Source: a virus (taxonomy: Duplodnaviria > Caudoviricetes). From it: 49,603 nt of DNA. A program made the translations under genes and the position numbers. Of the stretch, positions 14,265 to 44,453 are shown in pieces. The notes under the pieces are model-generated. The model saw only the letters and a list, made by a program, of their open reading frames with translations. It had not been told where the DNA came from and did no database searches. Location: IMG/VR virus record IMGVR_UViG_3300047409_000319, positions 1 through 49,603 of that record; one strand, given 5' to 3'. How positions within the stretch are numbered: the stretch's first letter is position 1; each line of letters starts with the position of its first letter.

Positions 14265-14297
14265 CATGGTCACGTAACCCAAGGGATAGGTGCAATT

Positions 14298-14489: not shown

Positions 14490-14499
14490 GGATAGTATT

Positions 14500-14805: not shown

Positions 14806-14809
14806 ACCT

Positions 14810-15316: not shown

Positions 15317-15621
15317 TTGACAAGGTTGTTTCTCTTGCAAGATTATCTGTCCCGGTTCCCTATGTTTGGGTCATGGGCACGGTGCTTGTAGGCGTGGTAG
15401 GATGGTGTGTTCAACTTCAAGGAGAAGTAACCTCCCTCATACAAAATGGTAGTCCCGCATCAACATCCGCTTTGCAACAACTTGCGTCTCTGGCTATACG
15501 TGTAGATGAACTACAAAAATTATCTCCTCAGATTCCTATCAATGGCAATCGTATAACTAGGTTAGAAACTCAACTAGAAATAATTCAGAAGGAGTTATAC
15601 TCGAAAGAGATCCTAAGGTAA
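15313..15621 (+). CDS. Membrane-anchored coiled-coil protein
   Basis: One TM followed by a heptad-rich helix. Confidence 0.55.
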   Translation: MIDKVVSLARLSVPVPYVWVMGTVLVGVVGWCVQLQGEVTSLIQNGSPASTSALQQLASLAIRVDELQKLSPQIPINGNRITRLETQLEIIQKELYSKEILR

Positions 15622-15722
15622 GCATTGCGGTTAACGCACTACCCTCCAGTGACGTATCGACTGGAGTCGGGTACTTAGTGTAATCTGCGTCTGATCCGCG
15701 CCCCTTCGGAAAGGGCAGTGTT

Positions 15723-16310: not shown

Positions 16311-16313
16311 TCT

Positions 16314-22300: not shown

Positions 22301-23765
22301 AGAATACGTAAAGGTACCCGGTGGGGTCAGCGGTCAGCACTGGTGGAATGAGAAAGAATCTCAGTCAGTTTTCCTGCAGGATAATGGAGACTGGTCCGTT
22401 CATAACCCCCATGCAAAGGCGAATGAGAAGTCCATCAAGAAGGGTTCAGGTTTTACTCCACTGATAAATCATTTGGATGATCTAAAGGAAAACAAGGGCA
22501 AGGTCAATGTTCCTGACCCTGACGTACAGGACCTGTTGGACTGGGCGAATAAGAAGGGAAAATACGCCCCTGAACCTCAGTCGCTTAAAGCCCCTGAAAT
22601 AGTAACTAACATTGAAACAGCCGTTAAAAAGGCCGGATGGGAATTTAACGGAAAGCACCCAGATGGATATGACACCTGGAAAAAGGGTAAAGAATCCCTT
22701 ATACTTAAGGACAATGGGGACTGGGAATATATAGATTTTGGAAAAAAGGCCCGTGGAGAATCATTTAGCGAACCACACCAAGGTTGGGGCCTACATGCAC
22801 TCCAGCCATTTATCGAGAAACAATCCGAAAAGGTATCCAATAAGGACAATTTCTGGGCAGCACAGAAATTCTTAGAGGATAAAGGTTCTAACCCCATAGA
22901 ACTTGGGAAAATGTCACCTCCTCAAGTTATACAACATGCATTGGATAATGGTTGGGCACCTGTTACCAAAGGTAAATCTAATATAACTACATTACCAGTT
23001 AAGCCATTAACCCCACAGCAAAAGGCCGCTGGGTACACACAACTTGTGTATCACGGTAAAGAATCATCTGATCCATTGCAGCCACATGCGGGTATGCACT
23101 TTGGTACCAAGGCGGCAGCTACAGATAGGTTGACAATTTCCTCTAACGGCAAGGGCACCATTCACCCAGCCTATTTGAAAAGGGGCAAATACCTGGAAAT
23201 GCCAGACCAAGGTGAAGATGATTGGGGCTGGGCCTTAACTCGCCATTTAGGATTACCTGTTGACTCTGACCCATTTGAACATCTTCGGAAACAGGGTTAT
23301 CTTGGTATCAAATATAAAAATGATGCTGAGGACATAGGTTCATATTCCTACATTATTGCTGACCCAAGTGCGGTTCTAACACCCGGTAGTAAGGCAAGCC
23401 CTACCCTCATCCCTCAGAAGGAAAAGCCCAAGCACGGGCAGGCGGCGTTGCACTTCAAAGGTAACGTGTATTCCGCTGATTTTCATGCCGAAGCGTTGGA
23501 TAAAATGCTAAAGTTAAACGGCTACCCCAAGGCTAAGGAAGGTGGCATTGACCTGTTCCTGAAGGACCACCCGGAAGCGGACAATCTGACCTCAGACCAC
23601 TGGGGCGGCATAACCAAGACGGGTGAATATCACCCGTTCACAAAGGAACTTGGTGAAGCTGTACCTATGCCCATTGACCAACACCGCAGGCTTGGCGGTC
23701 GGGTGGTGGATCTGCGAGGTGCCGTTGCACTGTTGAAAGCAAAGAGGGCTAAAGCAAATGCATAA
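16314..23765 (+). CDS. Large polyvalent protein (conserved N-terminal domain, ParB-like, Nudix, VIP2/Alt-like ADP-ribosyltransferase, repeats, second ART-like domain)
   Basis: 2483 aa; 'PGG.NYRELL', 'EELQSDWHQ'; 'PPIV...ILGGNTRL'; Nudix box 'KGRLEPGLSPQANAIKEAYEETG'; ART 'LWRGI...ATSLS...ENEVIL'; 'VYHG...GMHFGT..AA..R...G..GIKY.N..ED.GS.SYI'. Confidence 0.85.
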   Translation: MAIIPDWSEADPGYGGATPPPIDLDTYIHTLRSNPMISQAPQKGKPRPYGATYQGVGHPEDNAVSKIAGSILEGSRADEPLGMDYNGPAEQDMQKAFGYQTPQYYAAEAIARPIATIGDLGSRIFGGVQAGVAETAKQALLAGGAREGTAQSLSNDIGGMFESEGTRQMAEGPGMRAKAKGIDYDIPKHGEILPPEALPYTVPKVEKPGPTIEGEAVGPKRLAAPPKQLPGPKPSEVEKAIQEQQQRQQREQQKQAPTLPDTMQPQPEQPWQGKTAPKFYSHAEKVAAEKLPPRAPIAQVAATLKNSGIHSEELAPIEKWLKDEAKLRPDITKNEVLAKIRETTPQIEEAVKSEQLDNSQNFHQKVLEWMQEKGYPEKDITDWVNDWDPQASQRIAKEYRDAHPSRTKYHEYQVPGGNNYRELLMKLPSSTSKVEKAKLIDESAKKLANSFGVNWEDLPEENRNRYRERVQEIDPQGGGARNPGDFTSTHWPDDPNTLAHTRVNDRVIDGKKTLFAEELQSDWHQNGRKIGYGKAEPLTPEERAEFQKLESLPDKVRTPEQTARRDELVHKSDAFHRGDGVPDAPFKKTWPELLLKRLVSEAAEKGHDQLAWTDGATQASRYDLSHHVDQLTWDPKSGELKGMKGDPPREVVNESNVPAEKLPDYIGKEAADKMINNPTSKYSWGTHVLEGQDLKVGGAGMKGFYDTMLPNMANKLFGKWGAKVEQRTIKVNRSPTSFKTQEEYLNHPGDNKTVHVLPITPELRAKALNEGFPLFSGADKVAGPVVQPKLPTPPKKVLTTQEKQRARQQKKQAGLPTLPEDMQAQPTQQWQAQSKSADWASKFLTDHPGADLNEPFPGYHVIYHEGKSYTADNPQGLNHPDDLYNLKSYKAASKKYWENSHAPTTDEERRVEPDLPPEPEPTPKTETSLPPHIISQYTTETQGKQLSLYPKQFMREYTDAEFPWEWREYDKYGRGAVPDAFKDQADFKAKYDAAPLVHLKEDAIKKMDYATAGSYFGKGEDYARESFAHHRDMGRILDQIHNKDVAPPIVLLTDKGLRILGGNTRLSTAAALNYNLPVKLIDVRKTMGVEQGAPMQAWHNAPKTIDEWANVEGQNPDLKEPPLASAKGLPLATGIVIQEKDGSIWLMHPKGQYGGYNATFPKGRLEPGLSPQANAIKEAYEETGFKVKILSHLLDLDKTTTRTRYYLGERVGGKPTIGPETEKVSRVTLDQLRGIADHPSDLPVIKKLEAQKPLLLGWRGPNAGKGIEKEGVKPYKRLLQKYPEHQEVFEPHHVQAISDWTNGTYGDIGRHIYNGDKLGSTSAKTMRGLDDLLEKATLPTNLTLWRGINRYVYNDLQRLKPGDVWDSAGGYQATSLSHSFASGWKEKHYKIIAPRGTRGAIVGKHTAASTTENEVILPRAQPMFYQGRDHEGVMTFQIKEEAPRFTQLPPELAGAAYDPNFVQKPKSKTTPIPKPTREDIADAKDYLDSQSYGQEKIGGMTDNEVIQTAMDEGWLPPAVSPASSPASAPSDWKVVGNPTGGGFSIEHPVHGLGLKSNGLGHEVWPTKEQAKAAIKYYDHTGVKGKPEAKKDFGNLAEKLAKHPENLTSANQYLLNNGLGITLKEGNLMPTFDVFNKGVIQKALDHGWKPEAKKDFGNLAEELAKHAPNYDAAKRYLWDQGKSAHMNDAGKIYKGVQGVIQAALDHGWKPKTVAPQGTGSPAEIMKYQKFEGLANEMAKNPKNMDNAVHYLLNHPDMYHINDMKNWTPKEKIQEALFQNWQPKVIEPPPDLQAEAKAWLQSQMTDPIAPDQDYVKWARQYGWNPDKPALQKPSNTPHVAGGTKEGNLASFIGNIKDAGWTKGSGDTWNNADKTKTMFIYPTNESWDLYDNKSGTYLQSGKGFQELQKHLDKQSLPVKKSVEDKLNEAGWVQSEGAASHVWHSPKYDYKLILEKHGDWTVYPNDGSGRILGEGNGPIKLDKFLPGKPPSITEESLKDAEYVKVPGGVSGQHWWNEKESQSVFLQDNGDWSVHNPHAKANEKSIKKGSGFTPLINHLDDLKENKGKVNVPDPDVQDLLDWANKKGKYAPEPQSLKAPEIVTNIETAVKKAGWEFNGKHPDGYDTWKKGKESLILKDNGDWEYIDFGKKARGESFSEPHQGWGLHALQPFIEKQSEKVSNKDNFWAAQKFLEDKGSNPIELGKMSPPQVIQHALDNGWAPVTKGKSNITTLPVKPLTPQQKAAGYTQLVYHGKESSDPLQPHAGMHFGTKAAATDRLTISSNGKGTIHPAYLKRGKYLEMPDQGEDDWGWALTRHLGLPVDSDPFEHLRKQGYLGIKYKNDAEDIGSYSYIIADPSAVLTPGSKASPTLIPQKEKPKHGQAALHFKGNVYSADFHAEALDKMLKLNGYPKAKEGGIDLFLKDHPEADNLTSDHWGGITKTGEYHPFTKELGEAVPMPIDQHRRLGGRVVDLRGAVALLKAKRAKANA

Positions 23766-27770: not shown

Positions 27771-29297
27771 ATGTCAGCCGCTGCACAGGCGCTCCTCTCA
27801 TTATTTGAGGGGAGCGCGGAGGCTCACGGCACCTACACGGCTAACGGTGCTGTACCCCTTGGCACCAAGGTTGAAATCAAAAGCTCGGCTCGCACCTTGC
27901 GTGAGCCAGCATCTGAAGAAATATGGGATAACCACCTAGCGGGTAAAACCCCGCTGGGGGTTATTCCTTTACGTGCTGATGACATGATAGTTTGGGCCTG
28001 TGGTGATATCGACAAGTATGATATTAACCACGGTGAAATAGTACGGAAAATAGCCCAATACAAGCTGCCCCTGATACTGACCAAGTCCAAGTCAGGTGGG
28101 GCACATATATTCCTTTTCCTAAGTTCCCCAGCGGACCCTGCCCACATTCAAACCTGGATGCGAGTGCAGATGGCTTTGCTGGGCTATGGCACCTGTGAAA
28201 TATTCCCCAAGCAAACTAAGATACTGCGCGACCGGGGGGATTTGGGCAACTGGATAGTCATGCCTTACTTTGGGCAGACACAGGAAGCTATCCGTGCCAA
28301 TGGGGGTGCGCTAACGGTAGATGAATTTATACGGGAGGCGCAGAGGTTACGGCAAAATCCAGATGATCTGGTGGTCAAGCAACCAAAGTCAAATGGAGAT
28401 GCAGACAATACTGACATAGTGGATGGTCCACCTTGCCTACAGCATTTGATCGTCGCTGGCTTCCCTGAAGGTACACGCAACAAAGGCTTGTTTGCATTGG
28501 GGGTTTACTGCCGCAAAAAGTGGCCTGACCAGTGGCAGCGCCGGTTGGAGGAATACAACCAAAATTCAATGCGACCACCACTCCCGGCTGACGAAGTAAT
28601 GGCTGTGGTAAGGTCATTAGAGAAAAGGGATTATCAGTATAGTTGTAATGACATACCCTTGGTGAACCATTGTAATGCTCCTCTATGCCGGATGCGTACT
28701 TATGGGGTTGGGGGTGACGGCGGGGATATACCAGTTATCTCGGGGCTTTCAGTAATAGATGCAGATCCACCTATTTGGTTCCTGGATATAGGGGACCAGA
28801 GGATGGAGTTATCTACTGATGAACTACTGAATTACAGGCTATTCCAAAAACGTTGCACTGAAAAGCTATTCCAAATCTGGCGCACCCTGAAGCAAGACAC
28901 TTGGATGCGCATGGTGGGCAAGGCTATGGAGTCTGTGTCCCACATCGAAGTATCCCAGGAAATATCTCCCCAAGGGCACTTTCACGAATTAATCGAGGAA
29001 TTTTGTACTAACCGTACCCGTGGCACCCGTCCAGAGGACTTGTTCACAAAGCGGGTATACCATGCCGAACCAGAAGACCGATATTACTTCCGCATTGGTG
29101 ACTTGCAGAAGCATGTAGAAAAGGCCGGGATGAAAATGGACCGGCCCACACTAATAGCCAGAGTACGAGAATTAGGGGGTGGTAAGAAATTCCTTAATAT
29201 TAAGGGGCGCGGGGTTAATACTTGGTGGGTGGAACAAGGGTCAGTGGAATTTACTCCACCGATAGATCCACCGGAATTACAGCAGGAGGTTATGTAG
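27771..29297 (+). CDS. AEP-superfamily primase with PriCT-like domain
   Basis: DID motif, 'SKSGGAH', 'EIFPKQ', 'GNWI.MPY'; 'PPCL...GTRN..LF.LG' PriCT; Cys cluster. Confidence 0.85.
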   Translation: MSAAAQALLSLFEGSAEAHGTYTANGAVPLGTKVEIKSSARTLREPASEEIWDNHLAGKTPLGVIPLRADDMIVWACGDIDKYDINHGEIVRKIAQYKLPLILTKSKSGGAHIFLFLSSPADPAHIQTWMRVQMALLGYGTCEIFPKQTKILRDRGDLGNWIVMPYFGQTQEAIRANGGALTVDEFIREAQRLRQNPDDLVVKQPKSNGDADNTDIVDGPPCLQHLIVAGFPEGTRNKGLFALGVYCRKKWPDQWQRRLEEYNQNSMRPPLPADEVMAVVRSLEKRDYQYSCNDIPLVNHCNAPLCRMRTYGVGGDGGDIPVISGLSVIDADPPIWFLDIGDQRMELSTDELLNYRLFQKRCTEKLFQIWRTLKQDTWMRMVGKAMESVSHIEVSQEISPQGHFHELIEEFCTNRTRGTRPEDLFTKRVYHAEPEDRYYFRIGDLQKHVEKAGMKMDRPTLIARVRELGGGKKFLNIKGRGVNTWWVEQGSVEFTPPIDPPELQQEVM

Positions 29298-30724
29298 TGA
29301 CACCTGAAATAGTTATCGGTCCACCGGGTACCGGCAAAACAGAAACACTACTGGGGATTATCGATGAATGCTTAACATCGGGCATAGAACCTGAAGAAAT
29401 AGGGTTGGTGTCGTTTACTCGAAGGGCGGCGGGTGAGGCCATAGAACGTGCCGCAGAAAAGTTTAATCTTGACCGGGATAGGTTCAAATATATACGCACA
29501 TTGCATAGCATGTGCTTTCGACAGTTGGGACTGTCACCATCGGATGTATTGCAGGGCAAGCGGTTACGGGAATTTGCAGATTGGATAGGTATAGAAATAT
29601 CCACCAAAAAGTCTTTCGAGGAAGGTTCCACATTAGGATTTAAAGAGGGCGATCGGATACTGCACATGGAAAATTTAGCCCGTGTGCGCTGTATGCCGTT
29701 ACGGGAGGTATACGACCAGGACTGTGATGGGTTGAGTTGGTCGGATGTAAAGCGGGTGTCTGAGGGGCTGGCACTATACAAGAAGAAAAAATATCTAGTC
29801 GACTATACTGACATGCTCTCCCTCTACGCCAACGGCAACTCCCGGCCAAGGTTGAAGGTGCTGTTGGGGGATGAATCACAGGATATGTCGCTGTTGCAGT
29901 GGCAAGTGTTTAGCAGGCTGGCAAAGGGTTGTCAGCGGGTGGTTACGGCAGGGGATGATGACCAGTGTATTTTTCGGTGGGCAGGGGCGGCGCTAGAGCA
30001 CTTTGTGGGCATGGCGGGCAGTGTACGGGTGCTGGACCAAAGCTGGCGCGTGCCGCTGCTTGTCCAGGCCCTCGCACAGGACGTTATAGACCGGGTGGCA
30101 GGGCGGCGGCCCAAGCGGTGGGCGGCAAGGCCCGATAATGGAACAATCGAACGGGTAGGGTCGCTGGAAGACGTAGATTTCGACGGGGATGATGTGCTGG
30201 TGCTGGCACGCAACAACTACATCCTACAGGACCAAGTGGTGCCTGTGCTGAGAGCGGAAGGGATTATATATGAGCATCATAACGAACCGTCGGTGGATCC
30301 GGAAATTCTTGAGGCAATCACGGCGTGGGAACGTCTTCGTCGCGGCGAGGAGGTGGGAGAGGACGGCGAAATACTCATTAAGAAATACCGGCGGAGTAAG
30401 TCCCTACGTGTCGAAGGTGGACAGCAAATTTGGCACGACGCTTTGGATAACCTTCCTCCATCACAGATGAGTTATCTACTTGCGGCAAGGCGGCGTGGGG
30501 AAAGTTTGCAGAGAAAGCCAAGGGTGAGGCTGAGCACGATACACGGGGCCAAGGGGGCGCAGGCCAAGCATGTAGTGTTGCTTACTGAAATGGCACCTAG
30601 AACAACTGAAGAAGCTGAAAAGTGGCCCGAAGATGAAGCTAGGGTATGGTATGTCGGTTTGACCCGTGCTAGGGAAAAGCTCACTTTAGTGCAGCACATG
30701 GGGAAAAACGAATGGACCCTATGA
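29297..30724 (+). CDS. UvrD/Rep-like SF1 helicase
   Basis: 'GPPGTGKT', 'DESQD', 'AGDDDQCIF', 'STIHGAKG', 'YVGLTRA'. Confidence 0.9.
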   Translation: MTPEIVIGPPGTGKTETLLGIIDECLTSGIEPEEIGLVSFTRRAAGEAIERAAEKFNLDRDRFKYIRTLHSMCFRQLGLSPSDVLQGKRLREFADWIGIEISTKKSFEEGSTLGFKEGDRILHMENLARVRCMPLREVYDQDCDGLSWSDVKRVSEGLALYKKKKYLVDYTDMLSLYANGNSRPRLKVLLGDESQDMSLLQWQVFSRLAKGCQRVVTAGDDDQCIFRWAGAALEHFVGMAGSVRVLDQSWRVPLLVQALAQDVIDRVAGRRPKRWAARPDNGTIERVGSLEDVDFDGDDVLVLARNNYILQDQVVPVLRAEGIIYEHHNEPSVDPEILEAITAWERLRRGEEVGEDGEILIKKYRRSKSLRVEGGQQIWHDALDNLPPSQMSYLLAARRRGESLQRKPRVRLSTIHGAKGAQAKHVVLLTEMAPRTTEEAEKWPEDEARVWYVGLTRAREKLTLVQHMGKNEWTL

Positions 30725-31404
30725 CCGGGCAAGTGTGGGCCAATGGGGAGATAGAAGATCGAAAGTTGATTAAAGTAAATGAGGTGCTATGCCGAGAAAG
30801 TACAGCGGATGCGGATATTGTTAAGGAAATTGGAAGATCCTATGGTTGGCTAGATGTAAAGGGAAAAGTAGTCCTTGATATAGGGGCAAACATAGGGGCT
30901 TTTACCTGTTGGGCATTGGAGCAGGGGGCGCTGCAAGTTATAGCGATAGAGCCTGACCCTTTGAACTATAATATGCTTTGGAAAAATACTTGTCAATTAA
31001 GCAATAAATTAATTGTTCAAGTAGCTGTTGTGGAAGATAATTTTGAAGATTCATTTACAGAATTGTGGAGAACTGACAGTGGGAAAAATCCAGGTAACTA
31101 TTCCCTTGAAGTAAAGGGTGGCCGGACTGCAATTAAAGTTGGAACTGTTGGGTTTAAATCTATATTAGATAATTATCATCCTCATGTTATCAAAGTAGAT
31201 TGTGAAGGATCTGAGTATCGCTGGTTGGATGGTAGAAGGTTGCCGGGGGTTAACCAAGTGGCTGTGGAACTGCACTTTGGGAAGAAAAAATGGCGCGAGG
31301 ATAGTGCCCCAAAACTGGTTGAGTCATTCCGAGAATGGGAAGTTATGAAGGAACCAAAACTTGGTGGAAAACTGTGGCATTCTGTTGCAGGGTGGCGCAG
31401 ATAG
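30712..31404 (+). CDS. FkbM-family SAM-dependent methyltransferase
   Basis: 'VLDIGANIGAF', 'AIEPDP.N', 'IKVDCEGSEY'. Confidence 0.9.
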   Translation: MDPMTGQVWANGEIEDRKLIKVNEVLCRESTADADIVKEIGRSYGWLDVKGKVVLDIGANIGAFTCWALEQGALQVIAIEPDPLNYNMLWKNTCQLSNKLIVQVAVVEDNFEDSFTELWRTDSGKNPGNYSLEVKGGRTAIKVGTVGFKSILDNYHPHVIKVDCEGSEYRWLDGRRLPGVNQVAVELHFGKKKWREDSAPKLVESFREWEVMKEPKLGGKLWHSVAGWRR

Positions 31405-31406
31405 GC

Positions 31407-31435
31407 TTTACATTAACAGCTCAAGGGGCTATATG
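31407..31435 (+). promoter_or_regulatory. sigma70-like promoter
   Basis: TTTACA-N17-TATATG. Confidence 0.6.
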
Positions 31436-31469
31436 AAGTAGCACTTGGGACGCATATACAGAGGTAAAC

Positions 31470-31808
31470 ATGACTGACACTGAGACTGGAAACGCGGAAG
31501 ATCAGGCACCTGAGAAGGTAAAGAAAACACGTGCCAAGAAGGAACCGGCTGCTCCCAAGGAAAAGAAGGAGCGTACTGTCGCAACTTATCCGGGGTCGAC
31601 CAAGATTTACTTCGGTAAGGATAAGGACGGCAGGCTCTGGTCGCCGACGAATAGCCCACGTAGGGCAGGCACCAAGCTTGCTGATCGCTGGCATTACCGC
31701 AACGGCATGACACTGCGACAGGCAGTGGATGCCGGGATGCTCGCCGGTGACATCGTTTGGGATCTTTACAAGGGTTATATCAAGTTCGCTGATCCTGTGG
31801 ATGCGTAA
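31470..31808 (+). CDS. Small putative DNA-binding protein (Lys-rich tail plus 'RW.Y..GMT...D..W...KG.I' domain)
   Basis: GAGG RBS; paralogous to 43950..44453. Confidence 0.65.
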   Translation: MTDTETGNAEDQAPEKVKKTRAKKEPAAPKEKKERTVATYPGSTKIYFGKDKDGRLWSPTNSPRRAGTKLADRWHYRNGMTLRQAVDAGMLAGDIVWDLYKGYIKFADPVDA

Positions 31809-31841
31809 TTAGTTCCAAGTCGCACAACACGGGTTAGCGTC

Positions 31842-31891
31842 GGGCGTCAGTTTCAATGTATCCTCCTGCGTTGAGACTGACGCCCTTACTT
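31842..31891 (+). terminator. 19-bp stem-loop with TCCTCC loop (terminator and/or regulatory RNA)
   Basis: GGGCGTCAGTTTCAATGTA-TCCTCC-TGCGTTGAGACTGACGCCC followed by TTACTTT. Confidence 0.65.
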
Positions 31892-31908
31892 TATGTGAGG
31901 ATGAGGAA

Positions 31909-32823
31909 ATGACTTTAATTCCGGAACAAGTCGACGAATATTTTCGTACGGCACGGGTGCGGCATCAGATTTACTTGGACCGCAAGGCTGGCAAGCCGTA
32001 CCCCTGGACCGACGATGTTATCTTCAAGGACTGGAAGTTCACAAATGTTTTCAGAGAGTTAGATAAAACAACGGTATGGTTCCGGGAAAATGTACGGGAA
32101 CCCATGCGGGCTGACCCTGACGTGTTGCTGGCCACCATTGTCTTCCGCATGTTCAACAGAATAGGTACTGGTGAAGCTATATTTAACCAGAAAGCTTTCG
32201 ATGGTGGCCGCACGGCTTGGGAAGTATTTCTGGAAAAGAAAGACACTGATCACCTGAAATGGGCTATCAAGACTTACATCGGCGCACGCGGGCCGTATGT
32301 TACTGGAGCTTACATTATTCAGTCACCCGGCGGATATAACAAGGTTGATGGGGTGCTGAAGATAATAGAAATGGTAATGAATGGGTTAGACTTGGAAGGT
32401 TTCCGTCTATCTAGAGGAATAGGGTATTGGTGTGACAGTTTAGAAGATGCCTGTAATTTCCTACAAGGAACATTTAGATATATAGGTGGATTTACAGCCT
32501 ATGAATGGGTAAGTGACCTACGACATACGGACCTGTTGTGTAATGCACCTGACATTATGACTTGGGCGAATGCTGGACCGGGAGCAACCCGTGGGCTTAA
32601 CGTACTGCACGGGCGCAAGCTCACAGCCAACCCCAGGAAAGAACAGATGGTGGAGGAAATGAGGGAATTGTTGGAGTTGAGCAAAGACGAAGCATACTGG
32701 TCTTGGGATTGGCATGATTGGGAAATGCGGGAAGTGGAGCACTGGCTTTGTGAATATTTTAAGATTTACAGGGCCAAAGTACATGGTACAATGCCACGGT
32801 CTAGGTTTAAAACATGGTTATGA
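31909..32823 (+). CDS. aGPT-Pplase1 / 5-hydroxymethyluracil DNA kinase helical-domain protein
   Basis: 'RHQIY..R.AG.P.PWTDD.I...WKFTNVFRELDKTT', 'FRMFNR', 'F.AYE...DL', 'GPGA.RGL', 'EH.LCEY.K'. Confidence 0.85.
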   Translation: MTLIPEQVDEYFRTARVRHQIYLDRKAGKPYPWTDDVIFKDWKFTNVFRELDKTTVWFRENVREPMRADPDVLLATIVFRMFNRIGTGEAIFNQKAFDGGRTAWEVFLEKKDTDHLKWAIKTYIGARGPYVTGAYIIQSPGGYNKVDGVLKIIEMVMNGLDLEGFRLSRGIGYWCDSLEDACNFLQGTFRYIGGFTAYEWVSDLRHTDLLCNAPDIMTWANAGPGATRGLNVLHGRKLTANPRKEQMVEEMRELLELSKDEAYWSWDWHDWEMREVEHWLCEYFKIYRAKVHGTMPRSRFKTWL

Positions 32824-32832
32824 GGTTTAATC

Positions 32833-33441
32833 ATGACTTGTGGTGTTTATAAGATTTTGAATATGGTTGATAATAAAGTCTATGTGGGGTCTGCAGTTAA
32901 TATTGAAAGACGTTGGAATTTTCATAAGTATACTTTAAGACAGGGATTACACTCTACAAAATTTCAAAGAGCTTGGAATAAGCATGGTGAAATAAATTTT
33001 CAATTTGAAATTTTAGAACAATGTACTAATAATGAACTTATCGAAAAGGAACAATACTGGATTGATTTACTAAATTCAGTTAAAAAAGGATACAACATAC
33101 TTGAAAAGGCTTATTCACCAGTAGGAATTAAGCACTCTGAAGAAACCAAAGAAAAAATGCGATTGGGAAGAGCCAAATTCTTGGAAACTCCTGGTGCGAA
33201 AGAAGATTTATCTCGCCGGGCCAAGCTGCAACACGCTAACGGCAAGCTGGGGCGTTCAACCTGGAAAAGTGATCATACTAGAAAATTACGAGAAACAGGT
33301 TTAGAAGTTGGAAATCGTCCGGAAACTAAACAACGTCTCAAAGATCACATAGCTTCCCAGTCATCTGAAGAAATGAGACGCCGTAATTTACTTCGCAAAA
33401 CATATGGGAATGCCTACTACAAAGGTTTACCTAGAAAATAA
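32833..33441 (+). mobile_element. Free-standing GIY-YIG homing endonuclease gene with NUMOD3-like motif
   Basis: 'GVYKI.N...KVYVGSA...RW..H', 'EQYWID', 'GYN', 'KHSEETKEKM'; AT-rich. Confidence 0.85.
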
Positions 33442-33465
33442 TGAAGGAAACCGGGAGAGTTCCCC

Positions 33466-33879
33466 GTGGTCGGTTCAAACACTAAGCCAGTGATCGTGGA
33501 ACGTATATTCCACGGAAGGACAGAGAAACCTTGGCCTGGAGAAGTTGGGTCAGTTGGGTGGAATCTATGCCAGATGGTTGGATGCAGTGAATGGGAATTT
33601 CTCCAGGGGTTTGAACGGTTTATAATTGACCACAAGGTCCGCAAGCTGATACAGTTCATATGGGGTGAACTGGAAGGGCGAAGAGTTATCTTTTTAGGCT
33701 GGGCGGCGCTGAAACCCTTCGGCCTCCCGTTCGAAGGGTGGATCTTACCCCAGCTAGATGTAACCGGGCGCGAATGGCGGGTGATACCCAATACGGGAAT
33801 GGAAGAAAAAGCTTACCGTAATCCTCTAATGAAGCTTGAAGTATCCCTGCTGTTGAAGGACTGGTTCAATGGTTATTAA
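33466..33879 (+). CDS. Hypothetical protein, weakly uracil-DNA-glycosylase-fold-like
   Basis: 'RVIFLGWAALKPFG' and 'VIPNTG....YRNP' resemble UDG-superfamily C-terminal motifs, but the HPS motif is degenerate. Confidence 0.35.
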   Translation: MVGSNTKPVIVERIFHGRTEKPWPGEVGSVGWNLCQMVGCSEWEFLQGFERFIIDHKVRKLIQFIWGELEGRRVIFLGWAALKPFGLPFEGWILPQLDVTGREWRVIPNTGMEEKAYRNPLMKLEVSLLLKDWFNGY

Positions 33880-34210
33880 ACCTGACTGTGACTGTTGGAA
33901 AGACCCTGAAATGCGGGTCGAAAAAGAATTGAAGATAGATGCTATAGGCAGGGCTATACAGATTTCAGTAGGTCAAGTCATTAAAGACTTGAATATATGC
34001 AATGCCGCCACGGCTTATATCGGTGGTTCAGTAGTGGCAGGAATTGTCTATATGGTCGCCTACTTGCAACGGGGTGATGGGGAGTCTCCGACAGGTGAGC
34101 ATTTAGCCAAGGCGGAACTGGAAATCCTACAATGTTCACGTGAACGTCTTGAAGGTGCCCGTAATTTAGACATAGATAACTTGCCTGCTGTTTCAGACGT
34201 CAAACATTAG
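33869..34210 (+). CDS. Hypothetical protein
   Basis: Overlapping in-operon ORF. Confidence 0.55.
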   Translation: MVIKPDCDCWKDPEMRVEKELKIDAIGRAIQISVGQVIKDLNICNAATAYIGGSVVAGIVYMVAYLQRGDGESPTGEHLAKAELEILQCSRERLEGARNLDIDNLPAVSDVKH

Positions 34211-34219
34211 GGGTAACCC

Positions 34220-35218
34220 ATGCACGTGATAACTGGCCGCAATGTGAATAGTATTTACCGGCAAGCAGTTGAACTTGTACGGACTAAAGGCGTGCTACAG
34301 CCTTCGCGGGCTGGGGATGTTCTCACAGTTCTGGAGCCGGTGGTGCTGGAAACTATGGTTCCTACAGAACGGGTATTATTTGATATTCACAGGGATGCTA
34401 ATCCCTTTTTCCATTTCTTTGAGGCACTGTGGATGCTGGCAGGGCGCAATGATTCAGTATTCTTGAATCGATTTGTGCGAAATTTCGGTGAAAGATTTGC
34501 AGAGTATGATGAAAGTATACATGGAGCATATGGCTATCGGTGGAGAAAGCATTTCGGATTTGACCAGTTAAATACAGTGATAGCCAAGTTGAAGGCTAAT
34601 CAATATGATCGTCAAGTTGTGATTACTATGTGGGACCCTGAATTGAAATGGGGCCATAGAGACGAGAATGGTGCAACTGATTTACTGGGAGATTGGAAAG
34701 ATCGCCCATGCAATACTCATATCTACCCACGTATTGTCGATGGGAAACTTGATATAATGGTTTGCTGTAGGAGTAATGATGTGGTATGGGGTGCCACGGG
34801 TGCCAATGCAGTTCACTTTAGTTTCCTACTTGAATACTTGGCGGGTCGCATAGGGGTGGGCGTAGGTGTTATGCGACAAATGACCACTAACCTTCATGGG
34901 TATACTGATGTACTGGCGAAGATTGGGGAACCAAGTGCCGAAGTGACCTATGTTGCCAATGCACCTATCCCAATTGGCACTGATTGGGAATGTTGGGACT
35001 CTGACCTTATGTCTTTTCTCCGTATGGCTGAAAATGGCAACTGGGACGATGAAGTAGATAATGTGTGGTTTAATGAGGTAGCTCGGCCGATGTGGATGGC
35101 ACATGCTCATTGGCGACTAGGTCATTCTCGAGATACATACATGAATCTAGCAGCACAGATAGCCGCGCCCGACTGGCGGCTGGCGGCTACCCAGTGGTTA
35201 GGGAGGAGAAAGAAATGA
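34220..35218 (+). CDS. Thymidylate-synthase homolog, likely dUMP hydroxymethylase
   Basis: 'RDANPFFH..EALWMLAGRND', 'GAYGYRWR', catalytic 'PCN', 'RSND..WGA.GAN' (Asn at the U/C specificity position), 'NLH.Y'. Confidence 0.85.
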   Translation: MHVITGRNVNSIYRQAVELVRTKGVLQPSRAGDVLTVLEPVVLETMVPTERVLFDIHRDANPFFHFFEALWMLAGRNDSVFLNRFVRNFGERFAEYDESIHGAYGYRWRKHFGFDQLNTVIAKLKANQYDRQVVITMWDPELKWGHRDENGATDLLGDWKDRPCNTHIYPRIVDGKLDIMVCCRSNDVVWGATGANAVHFSFLLEYLAGRIGVGVGVMRQMTTNLHGYTDVLAKIGEPSAEVTYVANAPIPIGTDWECWDSDLMSFLRMAENGNWDDEVDNVWFNEVARPMWMAHAHWRLGHSRDTYMNLAAQIAAPDWRLAATQWLGRRKK

Positions 35219-35721
35219 GCTTTACTCGCGAGTCAGTATTAAAATCTATGCGGCGGGCGGGTAATGTTTTGAGGTATCACACATGGCCTACTATCCATAA
35301 ACAAACGGTGGCGGACCACACTTGGAACGTGATGCGAATTTACGTGGAGTTGTTCGGCCCACCAGATAAGAAACTATGGGTTCATATGCTGTACCATGAT
35401 GCCATGGAAATTCATACTGGGGATGTGCCATTTTATGCCAAACGAAAGTGGCCTAGTTTGAAAAAAGAATTAGACCATGCAGAAGTACAAGCGGCTGATG
35501 AATTTAATGTTCATTTGCCAATACTTACTCAAGCTGAGATAGATGAATGCAAGCTGTGTGACTTACTGGAAATGTGGGAATGGGGCAAGGAAGAAGTATT
35601 GATGGGCAATAGGTTAGCCCATACAATACAGGCTGATACTTGGTGGGCGGCGTCTGAGTTGTCCGAGAAACTTGGGGTAACGGAAATAGTCAAGAAATGG
35701 ATGGAGGAGAAGCAGCTATGA
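35215..35721 (+). CDS. HD-domain 5'-deoxynucleotidase (YfbR/DatZ-like)
   Basis: 'RYH....QTVADH', 'YHD..E..TGDVP', 'K.CDLLE'. Confidence 0.85.
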   Translation: MSFTRESVLKSMRRAGNVLRYHTWPTIHKQTVADHTWNVMRIYVELFGPPDKKLWVHMLYHDAMEIHTGDVPFYAKRKWPSLKKELDHAEVQAADEFNVHLPILTQAEIDECKLCDLLEMWEWGKEEVLMGNRLAHTIQADTWWAASELSEKLGVTEIVKKWMEEKQL

Positions 35722-36188
35722 CTAAGACACGAGAATTGTTGGAGGAACGGCAAACTACTCATGGCGAATATACGGTGAATGCTCAGATATCACAGGATAT
35801 CATGACCATTTGCCATGATGCACCAAGTTGGCCCAAGTTGACTCGAGTACAGCGGGAAACTTTGCATATGATCGCACACAAGATGGCCCGCATATTGGGT
35901 GGCAATCCTAATGTAGAAGACCACTGGAGAGATATAGCTGGCTACGCGGTGCTGGCGGCTGATAGGGTGACTAAGAAAGAATTTGATTATGTGAAAGCCG
36001 TGGGGGAATGGCCCACACAATATGATGAATCGTTCCGTAAGACTGTTCCAGTTGAAGACAGCAACAAACATGCTGATCAGATGAAGAAGAATATAACCCA
36101 TGATGAACTTATGAACCTGCCGAAAGAAGAACAAATGATGTATCGGTGGGCTCCATATGCAAACTCATACAAGTTGGACCTTGGGTAA
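35718..36188 (+). CDS. DUF6378-like all-alpha protein
   Basis: 'L.ER..THG.Y', 'MI.HKMARI..GNP...DHW.DIAGYA'. Confidence 0.75.
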   Translation: MTKTRELLEERQTTHGEYTVNAQISQDIMTICHDAPSWPKLTRVQRETLHMIAHKMARILGGNPNVEDHWRDIAGYAVLAADRVTKKEFDYVKAVGEWPTQYDESFRKTVPVEDSNKHADQMKKNITHDELMNLPKEEQMMYRWAPYANSYKLDLG

Positions 36189-36192
36189 ATAC

Positions 36193-37011
36193 ATGTCAGA
36201 CACACTCATAGCTATCCCTAGTTCAGGTCGGTCTGGAGCACAGACCACGATAGGTTACTTGCGGCAAGCTGGCGTGCTTGACCGGGTGGCCCTGTGCGTG
36301 CCAGAGGCCGAGGTTGACCGTTACAAGCGCAATGGCTGGCCGGGTGTTGTGGGCGTGCCGCCGACCCACCCCCGTATTGCGAAAAAGCGGGAATGGATAC
36401 TGACTGTACTGGCCTTTCAACGGCAGGCCAAGAAAGTATTAATATTGGATGATGACCTGCGGTTCAGCTACAGGGACCACTTAGGTGAAATCCACCTGAA
36501 CAAGGCTACACCTGACTCCATGAAGATGATGTTTGAACAATTGGATACATGGATGAATAGTGGATTTGTTCACGTGGGTATTTCCCACCGTAGTGGGAAT
36601 AATACTGAGCCAGAGGATTATAAAGACGCAACCCGCATGACTGCCGCTTACCAGTATGATACATATATGTTGTCAAAACTTATTGAAGCTGGTAAGGTTA
36701 CTTTAGCAAGGCTTGAGGTTATGGAAGATATTGATCTGACCCTACAGTTGCTACGGCTGGGCTACCCTAACCGGGTTACTTTTCAGTACACTTGGGATCA
36801 GGTTTCAAGTAAAAGCGGTGGCTGTAGCCAGTGGCGTACACCAGAAATCCAAGCGGAATGTGCCCATAAGCTGGCTGAACTGCATCCAGGATTTGTCAAG
36901 GTGACTGAAAAGACCACCAATACCAAGGATGCTTGGAAAGGCATGAAGACCCGAACCGATGTGGTGGTGTCCTGGGCCAAGGCGTACAAAAGTGCATTAC
37001 AGGAGAAGTGA
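36193..37011 (+). CDS. TET/JBP-associated (TAGT, GREB1-like) DNA glycosyltransferase
   Basis: 'IPS.GR', 'KREWI', 'LDDDL', 'EDIDLTLQLL..GY.N', 'GGCS.WRT', 'LAELHP..V', 'V.W.KA'. Confidence 0.8.
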   Translation: MSDTLIAIPSSGRSGAQTTIGYLRQAGVLDRVALCVPEAEVDRYKRNGWPGVVGVPPTHPRIAKKREWILTVLAFQRQAKKVLILDDDLRFSYRDHLGEIHLNKATPDSMKMMFEQLDTWMNSGFVHVGISHRSGNNTEPEDYKDATRMTAAYQYDTYMLSKLIEAGKVTLARLEVMEDIDLTLQLLRLGYPNRVTFQYTWDQVSSKSGGCSQWRTPEIQAECAHKLAELHPGFVKVTEKTTNTKDAWKGMKTRTDVVVSWAKAYKSALQEK

Positions 37012-37282: not shown

Positions 37283-37617
37283 TGACTCCGTGCCCGTGCT
37301 GTGGTCAGTTAGTAGATACGAATGAGTTACTGGTTAGTCTAGATACGAATACTGTATCTCGAAATGGAACTATTGTCCACCTTTCGCCACAGTTGACTGT
37401 ACTTGTGTATATTCTTAATGAAGCACGACCCAAGGGTGTTGACCACCACAAAATTGTGGGGGCAATACATGGTCATTTGATGAATCCATCTACTAATGAC
37501 CCACTAGAAGTCATGCGTGTACTATTATCACGTACACGGCAGTTATTGGGAAATTTAGGTATACATATAGTCAATCAACGCGGTAAAGGCTACCGTATGG
37601 TGGTTGATGAAAACTAA
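37282..37617 (+). CDS. Winged-helix (OmpR C-terminal-like) protein with N-terminal CPCCG zinc knuckle
   Basis: 'CPCCGQ', 'LSPQ...L..L', 'V.LSR.R..L...GI.I.N.RGKGYR'. Confidence 0.75.
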   Translation: MTPCPCCGQLVDTNELLVSLDTNTVSRNGTIVHLSPQLTVLVYILNEARPKGVDHHKIVGAIHGHLMNPSTNDPLEVMRVLLSRTRQLLGNLGIHIVNQRGKGYRMVVDEN

Positions 37618-39646
37618 ACGCAAGTCTTCCCCGGATCAGGTGCCGCTGGCATTCATGGTGCCGGAAAGCAATTGGTTGCCGCCTACCGAGTTGCCTGATT
37701 TGGTGGCAATGGGGGTCAAGCGTATAGCACTGGACACGGAGGAACGTGATGACGGACTCGCGAGTAATCGAGGCCCAGGATGGGCTACGAGTTCTGGATA
37801 TATTTGTGGAGTATCAGTCGCATGGCACGGAGGATCAGATATACAGTCTATCTATGTCCCCACCCAACATCCTGACAGTGCCTGTTTTGATACGAATGCA
37901 TTGGCCAAGTGGATTAGAGACATTGTACTGGCAGGAACCGAAATCATTTGCCAAAACGGCTCCTTCGACTGGGGATGGTTGGGAACGGAGTGGGCCATAG
38001 CACCACCCGCTGAGGGTAAGGTGCATGACACCCAAGCTGCCGCCGTGATGCTGGACGAAAACCGGCTGAGTTACGGTCTGGGGTCGCTGTGCGGCTGGCA
38101 GGGCATACCGGGCAAAGACAAATCCATGCTGATGGAGGCGGGGCGTGCCCTTGGGGTTGGTCAGACAGATCGGGAGGTGATGAGCAACCTGTGGCGTTTA
38201 CCGGCTAAATACGTGGGGCCATACGCCGAGGCTGATGCCGAGGCTACCCTGCGGCTGTGGGACCAGATGGAACCACAGCTACACGCACAGGACCTGTGGG
38301 GAGCTTACCGGCTGGAATGTGACCTTATCCCAATGATCGTGGCCATGCGCCGCAAAGGGATTAGAATAAATACAGCGTACGTTGAACAACAGATAGTAGA
38401 GTTTAACCATAAGCGTGATGCAGCACTGGTGGAACTGGGGCGGCACCTAACCATAGGGCGGGCGGTAGATATAAAGGATGTAAACTCGCCCATATTCCTG
38501 GAAAAGGTATTTACTTCCGAAGGGATTAAGTTTCCGCGCACCAAGGGTACTGAGACTAGGCCACAGGGCACACCTAGCTTTCAATCGGAATGGATGGAAA
38601 AATCAGACCACTGGTTACCGCAAGGGGTAGTTAATGCCAACAAATACCACGACGCTGCCGATAAGTTCCTTCAGGGGTTTATCCTCGACTATTGTCACCG
38701 TGGTCGCCTACACGCCGACATTCACCATCTTAGAAGTGACGACGAAGAACGGGGTTTCCGTGGAGGTACACGATCCCACAGATTCTCTTATAGTGACCCT
38801 CCCCTTCAACAAATGCCGTCACCTAAACGGGACAAGGAAATAGGGTTGGCAGTGCGGCGGGCGTTTTTGCCGGAAGAAGGGGAGCAGTGGTACAAGTTAG
38901 ACTTCGACCAGAACGAGTATAGACTGCTCGTCCATTTCGCTTCACTCATGGGGTTGCCCAAGGCTGAAGAGGCAGCGAAGGCTTACCGGGAGAACCCGGA
39001 AACGTCGTTCCATCAACTGGTGGTGGACTGGACCGGGTTGCCTAAGCCACGGGCTAAGGACTGCAACTTCGCCAAAGCCTACGGGGCAGGGAGGCCGCAA
39101 TTTTCACGGATGGTGGGCTTGCCGCAAGACGAATCGGATAAGATATATGACCTCTATGATGAGGAGTTACCCTTTGTCTCAAGATTATACCAGGAGTGTG
39201 GCAAGACTGCTACTCGCCGGGGCTATATTAGGCTTGTTGACGGAGCGCGGGCTAGATTTGATCTTTGGGAACCTGGATGGGGGTACAAGGGCAAATACTT
39301 CCCCCCATGCTCACGGGCTGAAGGGGACGCAAGGGTATCGTCCACCGATCACGAATGGAGCGGGCAAACGTTACGACGAGCTTATACCCATAAAGCTATG
39401 AACAGGCTTATTCAAGGGTCAGCAGCACGGCAAATCAAACTGTCAGCAAGGGCAGCATGGCGGGCGGGTATTATTCCATTACTACAGTTGCATGATGAAT
39501 GGGACCTGTCCGCTGCTGGAGATGGCACAGCTATACAGGTAAGGGAAATGATGGAGGAAGCGGTTAAGCTGGCTGTGCCTGTAACGGCAGGGTGTGATGT
39601 TGGGCCAAGCTGGGGTGAAGCAGATACAGAGTTGAAACGTGCTTGA
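37604..39646 (+). CDS. Family A DNA polymerase with 3'-5' exonuclease
   Basis: ExoI DTE, ExoII N..FD, ExoIII YA..D; motif A DFDQNEYR, motif B R..AK..NF...YG (Phe at 762-equivalent), motif C HDE. Confidence 0.95.
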   Translation: MMKTKRKSSPDQVPLAFMVPESNWLPPTELPDLVAMGVKRIALDTEERDDGLASNRGPGWATSSGYICGVSVAWHGGSDIQSIYVPTQHPDSACFDTNALAKWIRDIVLAGTEIICQNGSFDWGWLGTEWAIAPPAEGKVHDTQAAAVMLDENRLSYGLGSLCGWQGIPGKDKSMLMEAGRALGVGQTDREVMSNLWRLPAKYVGPYAEADAEATLRLWDQMEPQLHAQDLWGAYRLECDLIPMIVAMRRKGIRINTAYVEQQIVEFNHKRDAALVELGRHLTIGRAVDIKDVNSPIFLEKVFTSEGIKFPRTKGTETRPQGTPSFQSEWMEKSDHWLPQGVVNANKYHDAADKFLQGFILDYCHRGRLHADIHHLRSDDEERGFRGGTRSHRFSYSDPPLQQMPSPKRDKEIGLAVRRAFLPEEGEQWYKLDFDQNEYRLLVHFASLMGLPKAEEAAKAYRENPETSFHQLVVDWTGLPKPRAKDCNFAKAYGAGRPQFSRMVGLPQDESDKIYDLYDEELPFVSRLYQECGKTATRRGYIRLVDGARARFDLWEPGWGYKGKYFPPCSRAEGDARVSSTDHEWSGQTLRRAYTHKAMNRLIQGSAARQIKLSARAAWRAGIIPLLQLHDEWDLSAAGDGTAIQVREMMEEAVKLAVPVTAGCDVGPSWGEADTELKRA

Positions 39647-40353: not shown

Positions 40354-40703
40354 CTACCCGCCCGCCGTCTGACCCCGATTACTGGTACGACCCTGACGAC
40401 AAGGCTGCCGAAACCTGCGAACAGCGCAACATGCGTATGGGCTGGGGCTGCAAATGCCACGGCATGACGTTCTGCGCAGACCTTGTGTGCATCGGGCTGG
40501 AGGACGACGTGCCAATCTTCGTTCGTCGCGACAGCGAAGAAGCCCACATCGCCGAACTAGAAGGCGAGATCACTTGGTGGTCACGAAGATTGACGACAGC
40601 ATACGCCCGCATCGCCGAGCTTGAAGCCGAGCGGGACAGGCTCAAGGCCGACGCCGACTACTGGATGAAGAAGGCGACAAGGAATATAACAAGTGCCAGC
40701 TAA
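40350..40703 (+). CDS. Hypothetical coiled-coil protein
   Basis: 'ARIAELEAERDRLK' motif common in small phage proteins. Confidence 0.55.
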   Translation: MTTRPPSDPDYWYDPDDKAAETCEQRNMRMGWGCKCHGMTFCADLVCIGLEDDVPIFVRRDSEEAHIAELEGEITWWSRRLTTAYARIAELEAERDRLKADADYWMKKATRNITSAS

Positions 40704-41133
40704 AAATCAACAGATGATAAAGTGGACGGCTGAGCGGGATGCTCACCTCAAGTTACTGATGGATGGTGGGGTAAGTATGCCCCAAGCCGCCAAGATACTT
40801 GAAACGACACGTAATGCGATTATAGGGCGATTACATAGACTGAAGATTCGGTCCAGCTTTGTTCATGCTATCCCAAACCATGCCAACAGAAAATCTAGGA
40901 TTAAGAAACCTGGGACTGTGACCGTGCCGGTGCCAGTACCCACTAGCGTGGATAGCCTGTGGGTCAACCTACTTGATTTAGATGCCGACGGATGCAAGTG
41001 GATTAAGGGTGACAAGCCGTTTTTCTACTGTGGCGTGCCGCGTGAAGGCCATAGGGATTACTGCCCGTACCATTGCACCATCGCCTTCCGGCCTGACACA
41101 CGCCCGTTCAAGGCTAGATCGTTGAGATATTGA
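40693..41133 (+). CDS. gcrA: GcrA-like cell-cycle transcription regulator
   Basis: 'WT.ER...LK.L...G.S..Q.A..L.TTRNAIIG..HRL' HTH; C-terminal 'LLDL....CKW..GD..FYCG......YC.YH..IAF'. Confidence 0.9.
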   Translation: MPAKNQQMIKWTAERDAHLKLLMDGGVSMPQAAKILETTRNAIIGRLHRLKIRSSFVHAIPNHANRKSRIKKPGTVTVPVPVPTSVDSLWVNLLDLDADGCKWIKGDKPFFYCGVPREGHRDYCPYHCTIAFRPDTRPFKARSLRY

Positions 41134-43783: not shown

Positions 43784-43906
43784 ATCATATACGCCTTAAT
43801 CATAAAAGGCAAGCGCAAAGGTTGAAATATCTTTTTGATATTTGTCAATCTTTAGCATTAAATACTCAAAATAGTTGTTGCGTTTTTGATTGGGCACGCC
43901 TAGATT
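43784..43906. promoter_or_regulatory. Divergent sigma70-like promoter pair
   Basis: Minus strand TTGCCT-N17-TATGAT; plus strand TTGCGT-N17-TAGATT; AT-rich spacer between them. Confidence 0.6.
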
Positions 43907-43949
43907 GAATACAGCAACCGGGGCACGGCCCCACATCAGGAGGACTAAA

Positions 43950-44453
43950 ATGGCCTACAATCTTGACAAGCCCATCGCCGACTACAGCATTAGCCAGCTT
44001 GTTACCGTGTACAACGATATTGCCCGGTACAATGGTACCCCGCTGCGTAGCAGCACATTTAGGGATAAGGCAACCGCAATCAAGGCGGTGGAAAATGCAC
44101 TGGTCCAGGCTAACGCAACGCCGGAAGTGGAAGAAGAAACAGTGCCGGATGCGCGTGAACAGCATACCCTGAAGGACCAGTTGCAGGAATCCCTGGCGGA
44201 AACCGAAACCGAGGCGGCTCCGGTTGCCACTGGTAAGCGGCGTGGGCGGAAAACCAGCATCACGGGTAACGAAGTAATCGTGCCACTGTTTACCAAGTAC
44301 CCTCTCCCGGCTGGTGGCAAGCCCGCTGCCCGTTGGGCCAACTACACCGACGGCATGACCATCGACCAGTTTGGGGTTGCCCTGCGCGACCGCAAGCAAG
44401 CAATCGCCGATGTGCGGTGGTATGTACGCAAGGGACACGTCAAGCTGGCATAG
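43950..44453 (+). CDS. Putative DNA-binding protein, paralog of 31470..31808
   Basis: AGGAGG RBS; acidic linker, 'KRRGRK', 'ARWANYTDGMT...DVRW..RKGHVKL'. Confidence 0.7.
   Translation: MAYNLDKPIADYSISQLVTVYNDIARYNGTPLRSSTFRDKATAIKAVENALVQANATPEVEEETVPDAREQHTLKDQLQESLAETETEAAPVATGKRRGRKTSITGNEVIVPLFTKYPLPAGGKPAARWANYTDGMTIDQFGVALRDRKQAIADVRWYVRKGHVKLA

Follow-up and report, generated by a model that had tools for sequence, protein, structure and literature searches.

Thymidine hypermodification by bacteriophages has been described for M6, PaMx11, ViI, PhiW-14, SP10 and SH-Ab 15599 (PMC8989533, PMC5889632, PMC13458397; these and all other publications are cited from the portions of their text that were available). 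These phages share a thymidylate synthase (TS) homolog, an HD-domain protein, the protein aGPT-Pplase1 (Pplase1 below), a UDG-like gene and the family A DNA polymerase PolA, encoded in one block, with the viral DNA analysed here: IMG/VR record IMGVR_UViG_3300047409_000319 (Duplodnaviria; Caudoviricetes), a linear contig of 49,603 bases with a CheckV completeness of 80%, the whole of which is called the window. The M6-type systems also have a P-loop kinase, an amino-acid:DNA transferase (AADT), a pyridoxal phosphate (PLP) enzyme and a radical SAM isomerase, whereas the window lacks all four and has a TAGT-family glycosyltransferase (GT) and an FkbM-family methyltransferase instead. The cluster is real and widespread, a sugar-type version of this thymidine hypermodification that does without a kinase. 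The names TAGT and aGPT-Pplase reportedly go back to Iyer et al. in 2013.

The core gene set of this variant is already known in print, and its product is unmeasured within the searches made. In the HTVC023P-type pelagiphages a TS, an aG/PT-PPlase1 and a 5'-deoxynucleotidase, together with a beta-glucosyl-HMC-alpha-glucosyltransferase, are found near PolA, with no product given (Wittmers et al., PMC9599517), and the four-gene core near PolA is the same in these phages, in phages JL001 and LuckyBarnes and in the window. The window adds FkbM to this core; in the main text of PMC9599517 the words 'FkbM' and 'methyltransferase' each occur 0 times, and JL001 and LuckyBarnes gave no FkbM match by tblastn. 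An earlier, sequence-only reading of this DNA had called the gene combination unusual. This is less so than claimed, since the kinase-less core occurs in JL001, LuckyBarnes, many metagenomic phages and the HTVC023P-type pelagiphages.

The predicted product is like base J of trypanosomes (JBP and JGT), in which a GT-A enzyme also places a sugar on the 5-hydroxymethyl group of uracil. In the window, however, a synthase acting before replication, and not JBP/TET oxidation, would supply the 5-hydroxymethyluracil (5hmU), and O-methylation would be added. Phage clusters combining TET/5mYOX enzymes with GTs likewise put GT-A sugars on a 5-hydroxymethylpyrimidine of DNA (PMC8256090; bioRxiv 2023.12.21.572611; PMC13229309), and O-methyltransferases are among the domains that co-occur with phage 5mYOX genes (PMC13229309). 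Close relatives of the window's FkbM protein occur in ParB-TET-TAGT-FkbM clusters. The products shown for the TET/5mYOX clusters are on cytosine, whereas the window gave no match for TET and has a synthase predicted to select dUMP. Sugar-bearing thymidine derivatives, as predicted here, are known from the DNA of SP-15, YerA41 and Carin-5; those are sugars on a long C5 linker, accompanied by a UDG-fused PolA (PMC13697223), whereas the window has a single GT and a PolA without UDG domain by Pfam. Our literature search, for which most subscription papers were beyond reach, found no measured glycosyl-5hmU or methylated sugar in phage DNA, and the term 'FkbM' is absent from the papers that one of its queries listed. 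The available portions of PMC8256090, PMC7824862 and PMC11946847 hold nothing on the cassette.

Synthase and glycosyltransferase

The modification block lies between the genes for the helicase UvrD (29222-30724) and PolA (37604..39646; PF00476; homolog of M6 gp62 and JL001 gp28), with all genes on the plus strand. Profile searches confirmed the FkbM, TS-homolog, HD, DUF6378 and TAGT genes that the sequence-only reading had placed there. The TS homolog (34220..35218, plus strand) has 40% identity to M6 gp58 (E 2e-71). Its alignment shows Asp161 at the Leu143 site, Cys164, the motif RSND at 184-187 and Asn196 at the Asn177 site, so the RSND motif and the specificity-site asparagine reported earlier are both present. 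Specificity for dUMP is conferred by an Asn at the 177 site, and an acidic residue at the 143 site accompanies hydroxymethylation (PMC13326640). Among 103 synthases examined, 97 match the motifs, all of them (97/97) with Asn at the Asn177 site and 86 of the 97 with Asp at the Leu143 site. We infer that the window's enzyme is a dUMP hydroxymethylase making 5-hydroxymethyl-dUMP (5-hmdUMP). A cytosine-type synthase (dCMP hydroxymethylase or 5-hydroxy-dCMP synthase) was rejected, as Asn196 and Asp187 are retained; a kept Asp169 is described as speaking against a 5-hydroxy-dCMP synthase (PMC13326640). A canonical dTMP synthase is unlikely, as Asp sits at the Leu143 site.

The TAGT protein (36193..37011, plus strand), a homolog of JL001 gp22, matches PF20691 (E 1e-15; 58.5 bits against a cut-off of 27.5) and phrog_842 (E 4e-40) and has a DDD motif at residues 86-88; its AlphaFold model (pLDDT 95.5) gives GT-A fold matches. 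No other GT was found in the window, so the enzyme would need to use 5hmU itself as acceptor. Sugars are put directly on 5-hydroxymethylcytosine by GT-A enzymes of phages, which resemble the base-J glucosyltransferase (bioRxiv 2023.12.21.572611). Searching solved structures by sequence yielded nothing of use for the GT or Pplase1, nor for FkbM beyond its S-adenosylmethionine (SAM) motif.

The gene context of this GT was compared over two samples of viral loci, all of them fragments with at most 10 kb of flanking DNA. One was selected by an alignment scan for the GT (80 of 88 viral loci kept; scanning viral contigs with one GT sequence gave no matches). For the other the Pplase1 protein was the query, and its 20 viral loci include several near-copies. 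The GT-selected loci contain TS in 72/80, Pplase1 in 62/80, PolA in 60/80 and HD in 57/80 cases, with a kinase in 1/80 and an AADT in 1/80 (kinase 1/48 after 70% dereplication). The Pplase1-selected loci have a kinase in 12/20, a GT in 9/20 and both in 1/20. As the kinase is nearly absent from the GT loci, it appears that the GT takes the place of the kinase route. Because the selected loci are fragments, whole genomes were examined as well. No kinase or AADT over cut-off was found in JL001, in LuckyBarnes or in two further genomes, G001 (97% complete) and G002 (100%); the M6 positive control matches both, and a weak ADDT match in JL001 falls within its Pplase1 gene. G001 has the same gene set as the window, arranged almost identically and closest to it in layout, in the order small open reading frame (ORF), FkbM, Pplase1, UDG-like, GT, TS, HD and PolA.

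The first step of the pathway that we propose is predicted from these residues and from the homology to M6 gp58. The synthase would make 5-hmdUMP, the HD nucleotidase would remove thymidine nucleotides and PolA would incorporate 5-hmdUTP. In a second step the TAGT enzyme would move the sugar of a host nucleoside-diphosphate (NDP) sugar, most simply glucose, onto the 5-hydroxymethyl oxygen in DNA, with no phosphate intermediate. We regard it as probable that 5hmU replaces T and is directly glycosylated. The sequence-only reading had proposed 5hmU, then a sugar, then FkbM. Active-site residues and gene co-occurrence agree with that order; its branch through phospho-5hmU or a phospho-sugar is not supported, since a kinase is lacking.

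In the kinase-less loci L031, L037, L043, L045, L050, L052 and L023 the slot between Pplase1 and the synthase is occupied by GT1 (GT-B) proteins that belong to one family and measure about 430-445 aa. A radical SAM/SPASM gene, present in 13/80 GT-selected loci, lies inside kinase-less TAGT cassettes such as those of L019, L055 and L128; its product could oxidise the DNA-linked sugar. In the cultured jumbo phage RSL1 of Ralstonia (L330), three genes annotated as this GT family lie immediately upstream of the synthase (9268-17662), together with genes for an adenylylsulfate (APS) kinase, a sulfotransferase and nucleotidyltransferases, and a sulfated-sugar thymidine modification is possible there.

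The FkbM methyltransferase and its substrate

The FkbM gene (30712..31404, plus strand), the start of which overlaps the end of the UvrD gene, encodes a SAM-dependent methyltransferase matching PF05050 (E 7e-12; 46.2 bits against a cut-off of 22.7). The protein has the motifs DIGA, EPD and KVDCEG, plus a subfamily motif SGKNPGN..GR, and the residues D56-I-G58-A59, G62, E80-P81 and K161-x-D163-x-E165-G166 are invariant in 18/18 sequences. The nearest ESM Atlas clusters are mostly viral FkbM, and sequence comparison places the window's protein in a viral subfamily that is tied to DNA-modification clusters.

Across the fetched loci FkbM hits were obtained in 230 sequences, and hits of at least 150 bits were taken as close (80 loci, 48 after dereplication). 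TS or TET is present in 36 of the 48 close non-redundant loci, in several gene orders, although six of the loci in the count had contributed to the profile, so that the counts lean to their contexts. A recognised GT accompanies FkbM in 29 of these 36 loci (17 TAGT and 12 GT1, the latter of the GT-B type); two others have kinase and AADT, one has an unclassified partner and four have nothing recognised, among them L189 with a GT1-like neighbour by hhalign (prob 88). Two of the other 12 close loci have Pplase1 and a GT, and 10/48 show no marker. The FkbM neighbours in L247, L230, L242, L033 and L041 look GT-like by eye; they gave no Pfam GT or GT1-profile match and were not counted. In a quick tree of 101 proteins the window's protein is nearest to those of the GT1-linked loci L188 and L248 and the TAGT-linked locus L196.

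On the strength of these associations we favour methylation of a sugar as the role of FkbM, as a member of these clusters. In the third and least certain step, FkbM would methylate a hydroxyl of the DNA-linked sugar, and the three steps together would give a base-J-like glycosyl-5hmU with an O-methylated sugar. We put the probability of this full path, predicted from the genes, at about 0.45. It would serve to shield the DNA against restriction and against enzymes that cleave sugar-modified DNA. If the prediction holds, phages make base-J-like DNA pre-replicatively and cover it with a layer of methylated sugar that could make the latter enzymes less effective. Metagenomes commonly contain the cassette, the core of which also occurs in two cultured phages, JL001 and LuckyBarnes; a GT or methyltransferase that works on 5hmU in normal base pairs would serve as a labelling tool. 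More broadly, though somewhat short of an even chance, the viral FkbM subfamily may consist of DNA-acting O-methyltransferases, producing a new base that would be either O-methyl-glycosyl-5hmU, in effect a methylated base J formed without JBP, or 5-methoxymethyluracil, with Pplase1 reverting leftover 5hmU to T in a kinase-free manner.

Several observations weigh against an O-methylated sugar on 5hmU in the window, including the make-up of the profile and the 10 marker-less loci given above. FkbM is present in only 5/80 of the GT-selected loci and lies 4.8 kb from the GT in the window. One FkbM type pairs with two unrelated GT folds, the nearest relatives in L188 and L248 being linked to GT-B. 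FkbM also occurs without a recognised GT, namely in the TET-FkbM fusions of L027 and L028, in the Pplase1-FkbM-TS loci L079, L084, L088 and L241 and in the kinase-AADT loci L039, L042 and L063. Further upstream in the pathway, the PHROG name of the window's GT family is that of a secondary (sugar-on-sugar) T-even enzyme, and neither a dCMP deaminase nor DUF3310 was found in the window, unlike in M6 and JL001.

The GT-less loci bear most directly on the main rival, in which FkbM methylates the 5-hydroxymethyl group itself and gives 5-methoxymethyl-dU at GT-free sites, so that two modifications would exist in parallel. The dioxygenase (TET/JBP) fusions (L027:722-2335 and L028:3811-5430) lie downstream of ParB and upstream of the terminase with no GT seen in the locus; L079, L088 and L241 show Pplase1, FkbM, TS, HD and a polymerase without a recognised GT, as does L084 without an HD match; and over partners as different as GT-A, GT-B and kinase-AADT the common feature is 5hmU. 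Six of the FkbM proteins without a recognised GT (L027, L028, L063, L079, L084 and L088; 68-98 bits) nevertheless form one branch of the quick tree (support 92), outside the set of 48 that holds the window's protein (support 97). Kinase-AADT partners make up only 2/36 in the close FkbM subfamily, against a kinase in 12/20 of the Pplase1-selected sample, and a tblastn search with the window's FkbM against 50,697 phage records gave four matches, none of them M6-like. We consider methylation of the 5-hydroxymethyl group unlikely for the window, if the strongest of the competing explanations.

Less likely again is a plain glycosyl-5hmU (base J or another hexose), with FkbM acting on the NDP-sugar donor, on a non-DNA target or on nothing in DNA. 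It would account for the 75/80 GT-selected loci that lack FkbM, for some relatives whose FkbM gene follows PolA or falls between primase and helicase, away from the cassette, and for the close loci without a marker (10/48). The proximity of the close FkbM genes to TS or TET in several gene orders (36/48) and the two TET fusions argue against it.

Other FkbM genes of the sample have a different neighbour. A myo-inositol-1-phosphate synthase adjoins FkbM and a distant HMUDK_hel protein in L041:7539-12062, with a similar arrangement in L056, L060, L066 and L234, and in L007:1810-4788 such a synthase adjoins ADDT, a phosphatase and a kinase. These contexts suggest inositol-type DNA modifications at the L041-like loci and at L007.

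Pplase1 and the question of a kinase

The Pplase1 gene (31909..32823, plus strand) is a homolog of M6 gp55 (37% identity, E 1e-41) and of JL001 gp19, and matches PF18723 (E 9e-41; 140.5 bits against a cut-off of 25). The sequence-only reading had taken its product for both an aGPT-Pplase1 and a 5hmU-DNA kinase. The first assignment stands and the second has to be dropped: the protein is a homolog of gp55 and not of the kinase gp54, it has no Walker A pattern, and its AlphaFold model (pLDDT 93.5) is all-alpha. Pfam assigns M6 gp54 to PF18748, gp55 to PF18723 and gp51 to ADDT; relative to this, Table 3 of PMC5889632 swaps gp51 and gp55. The 5-hmdU DNA kinases that have been tested are P-loop proteins such as M6 gp54, and gp55 could be omitted from the reaction (Lee 2022, PMC8989533). 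The Pfam name of PF18723, 'HMUDK_hel' ('5-hmdU DNA kinase, helical domain'), thus misleads towards a false kinase annotation.

Searches for the missing enzymes were consistently negative. With M6 gp54 as tblastn query the window gave no match at E<=1, and gp51, gp52 and gp53 gave nothing significant; family searches of the genome with PF18748, PF18724, PF18746, PF18751 and PF18747 returned 0 matches each. Our own kinase profile (17 ORFs) had no match in the window at E<=1 and our own AADT profile (14 ORFs) only a best E of 0.21. Pplase3 was not found in the window, and neither the M6 profiles (PLP, radical SAM) nor that of a SPASM family had a match there, in agreement with the earlier statement that aGPT-Pplase2, PLP and radical SAM enzymes are lacking. 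The Walker A pattern occurs in the window only in UvrD and in a giant protein described below.

Pplase1 has the appearance of a catalyst. Its residues Cys281, Glu282 and Lys285 are invariant in 84/84 homologs, kinase-linked or kinase-less, and the Cys aligns to a conserved Cys of the AADTs (hhalign E 3.7e-4, prob 36). All Foldseek matches are weak (E above 0.001), the leading ones being helix-hairpin-helix (HhH) glycosylases and the PaMx11 transferase gp46. No residue separates kinase-linked from kinase-less Pplase1 over our thresholds, save a partial Glu/Gln difference at 277. From alignment and model, Pplase1 is best described as a catalytic-looking, all-helical paralog of the amino-acid:DNA transferases and not as a 5-hmdU kinase. 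It accompanies the synthase as a constant companion in kinase-type and sugar-type clusters alike, and the kinase-less clusters are the cleanest setting for finding its role. M6-type virions are without 5hmU, and AADT plus borohydride yields T from 5-phosphomethyl-dU (5-PmdU) (PMC8989533). For this reason our guess is that Pplase1 probably deals with any remaining unmodified 5hmU, conversion to T being one example.

The same chemistry can be extended to a pathway in which Pplase1 acts last. The sugar would be a leaving group in place of the phosphate, the Cys would form an exocyclic methylene and add a nucleophile or hydride, and the virion would hold T or another adduct. The invariance of Cys281 and Glu282 with or without a kinase, the alignment with the AADT Cys, the borohydride result and the lack of 5hmU in M6-type virions fit such a step, as does SP10, for which the sole aG/PT-PPlase given is a clade-1 domain (PMC5889632 Table 3). 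However, M6 gp55 is dispensable for modification (PMC8989533), no Pplase1 activity was found in the literature consulted, and by general chemistry an O-glycoside leaves poorly compared with a phosphate. The tailoring genes (FkbM, radical SAM/SPASM in 13/80 GT loci, second GTs) moreover point to a sugar that is retained. A final Pplase1 step is hence rated as improbable, marginally below the plain glycosyl-5hmU.

Very improbable is a phospho-route, in which the PF18723 protein, or a kinase encoded in the absent portion of the genome, phosphorylates 5hmU in DNA on the way to a phospho-sugar or amine. The Pfam name, the roughly 20% of the genome that is missing (a point that also counts against the pathway proposed here) and the joint occurrence of GT and kinase in L022 and L153 speak for it, whereas the tested kinases are P-loop proteins quite unlike the all-alpha Pplase1 model without Walker A, the head module most probably accounts for the gap, and four whole genomes with the same core have no kinase.

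Accessory genes and genome setting

Three ORFs of the block were absent from the sequence-only reading. The first (31470..31808, plus strand) encodes a small basic protein, a homolog of JL001 gp18 (tblastn E 3e-5). Profile matches to this family were found in 58 ORFs among 188 sequences, often adjoining Pplase1 or the GT, and the window has a second gp18-like member at 43890-44453. An intergenic 19-bp hairpin (31842..31885, plus strand) follows the small basic ORF and precedes the Pplase1 gene; the region 31809-31915 has a folding energy of -44.3 kcal/mol (z -4.9), with equally stable shuffles in 0/200 cases. The hairpin is a possible terminator or processing site.

The second, a GIY-YIG homing endonuclease gene (32833..33441, plus strand; PF01541 E 8e-13; phrog_314 E 9e-32), is inserted in the cluster and separates Pplase1 from the UDG-like gene; the same two genes are adjacent in L196. 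The UDG-like ORF (33466..33879, plus strand; start uncertain) is a true member of the M6 gp48 family, as proposed earlier (iterated M6 gp48 profile E 3e-32). Its likeness to an active UDG, however, does not extend to the conserved residues: the family motifs GxNP/GQAPG and PHPSG are replaced by ERIFH and PNTG, and Pfam gave no match, although 5/8 other family members match UDG. An active UDG was therefore rejected, and the protein is likely to be catalytically dead, as judged from these motifs. The third ORF, an orphan of 113 aa (33869..34210, plus strand), is without Pfam or PHROG match and has no homolog among 187 loci.

Downstream of the synthase, a YfbR-like HD-domain 5'-deoxynucleotidase (35215..35721, plus strand; PF12917 E 1e-8) is a homolog of M6 gp59 and JL001 gp25 and is predicted to deplete dTMP or dTTP. 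It is followed by a DUF6378 gene (35718..36188, plus strand; PF19905 E 4e-6; ESM Atlas), which occupies the slot held by DUF3310 in relatives. Homology between the two DUFs is unsupported (hhalign prob 11); a nucleotide-pool role for DUF6378 may be inferred.

Along the window, virion genes (adaptor, tail, holin and a 2,483-aa protein) are followed by a replication block (SNF2, primase, UvrD, PolA) and the terminase. Pfam and PHROGs revealed neither a portal nor a major capsid gene in the window. Since the window starts in virion genes and ends with the terminase, the absent ~20% of the genome most probably comprises the head module. A homolog of the cell-cycle regulator GcrA (40693-41133; E 8e-19) suggests an alphaproteobacterial host, and GANTC sites number 90 in the window against 124 expected. 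For 6-bp palindromes the observed/expected ratio is 0.30 for the GC-only ones and 0.70 for the A/T-containing ones; the GC-only ratio of the window is reached by 0/7 marker-less loci of similar GC, 7/28 sugar-type loci and 0/2 kinase-type loci. The giant 2,483-aa protein (16314-23765) combines an endolysin-like stretch (residues ~485-625), a NUDIX domain (~1130-1242) and an ADP-ribosyltransferase-like domain (~1284-1423), and is possibly ejected to act on the bacterial host.

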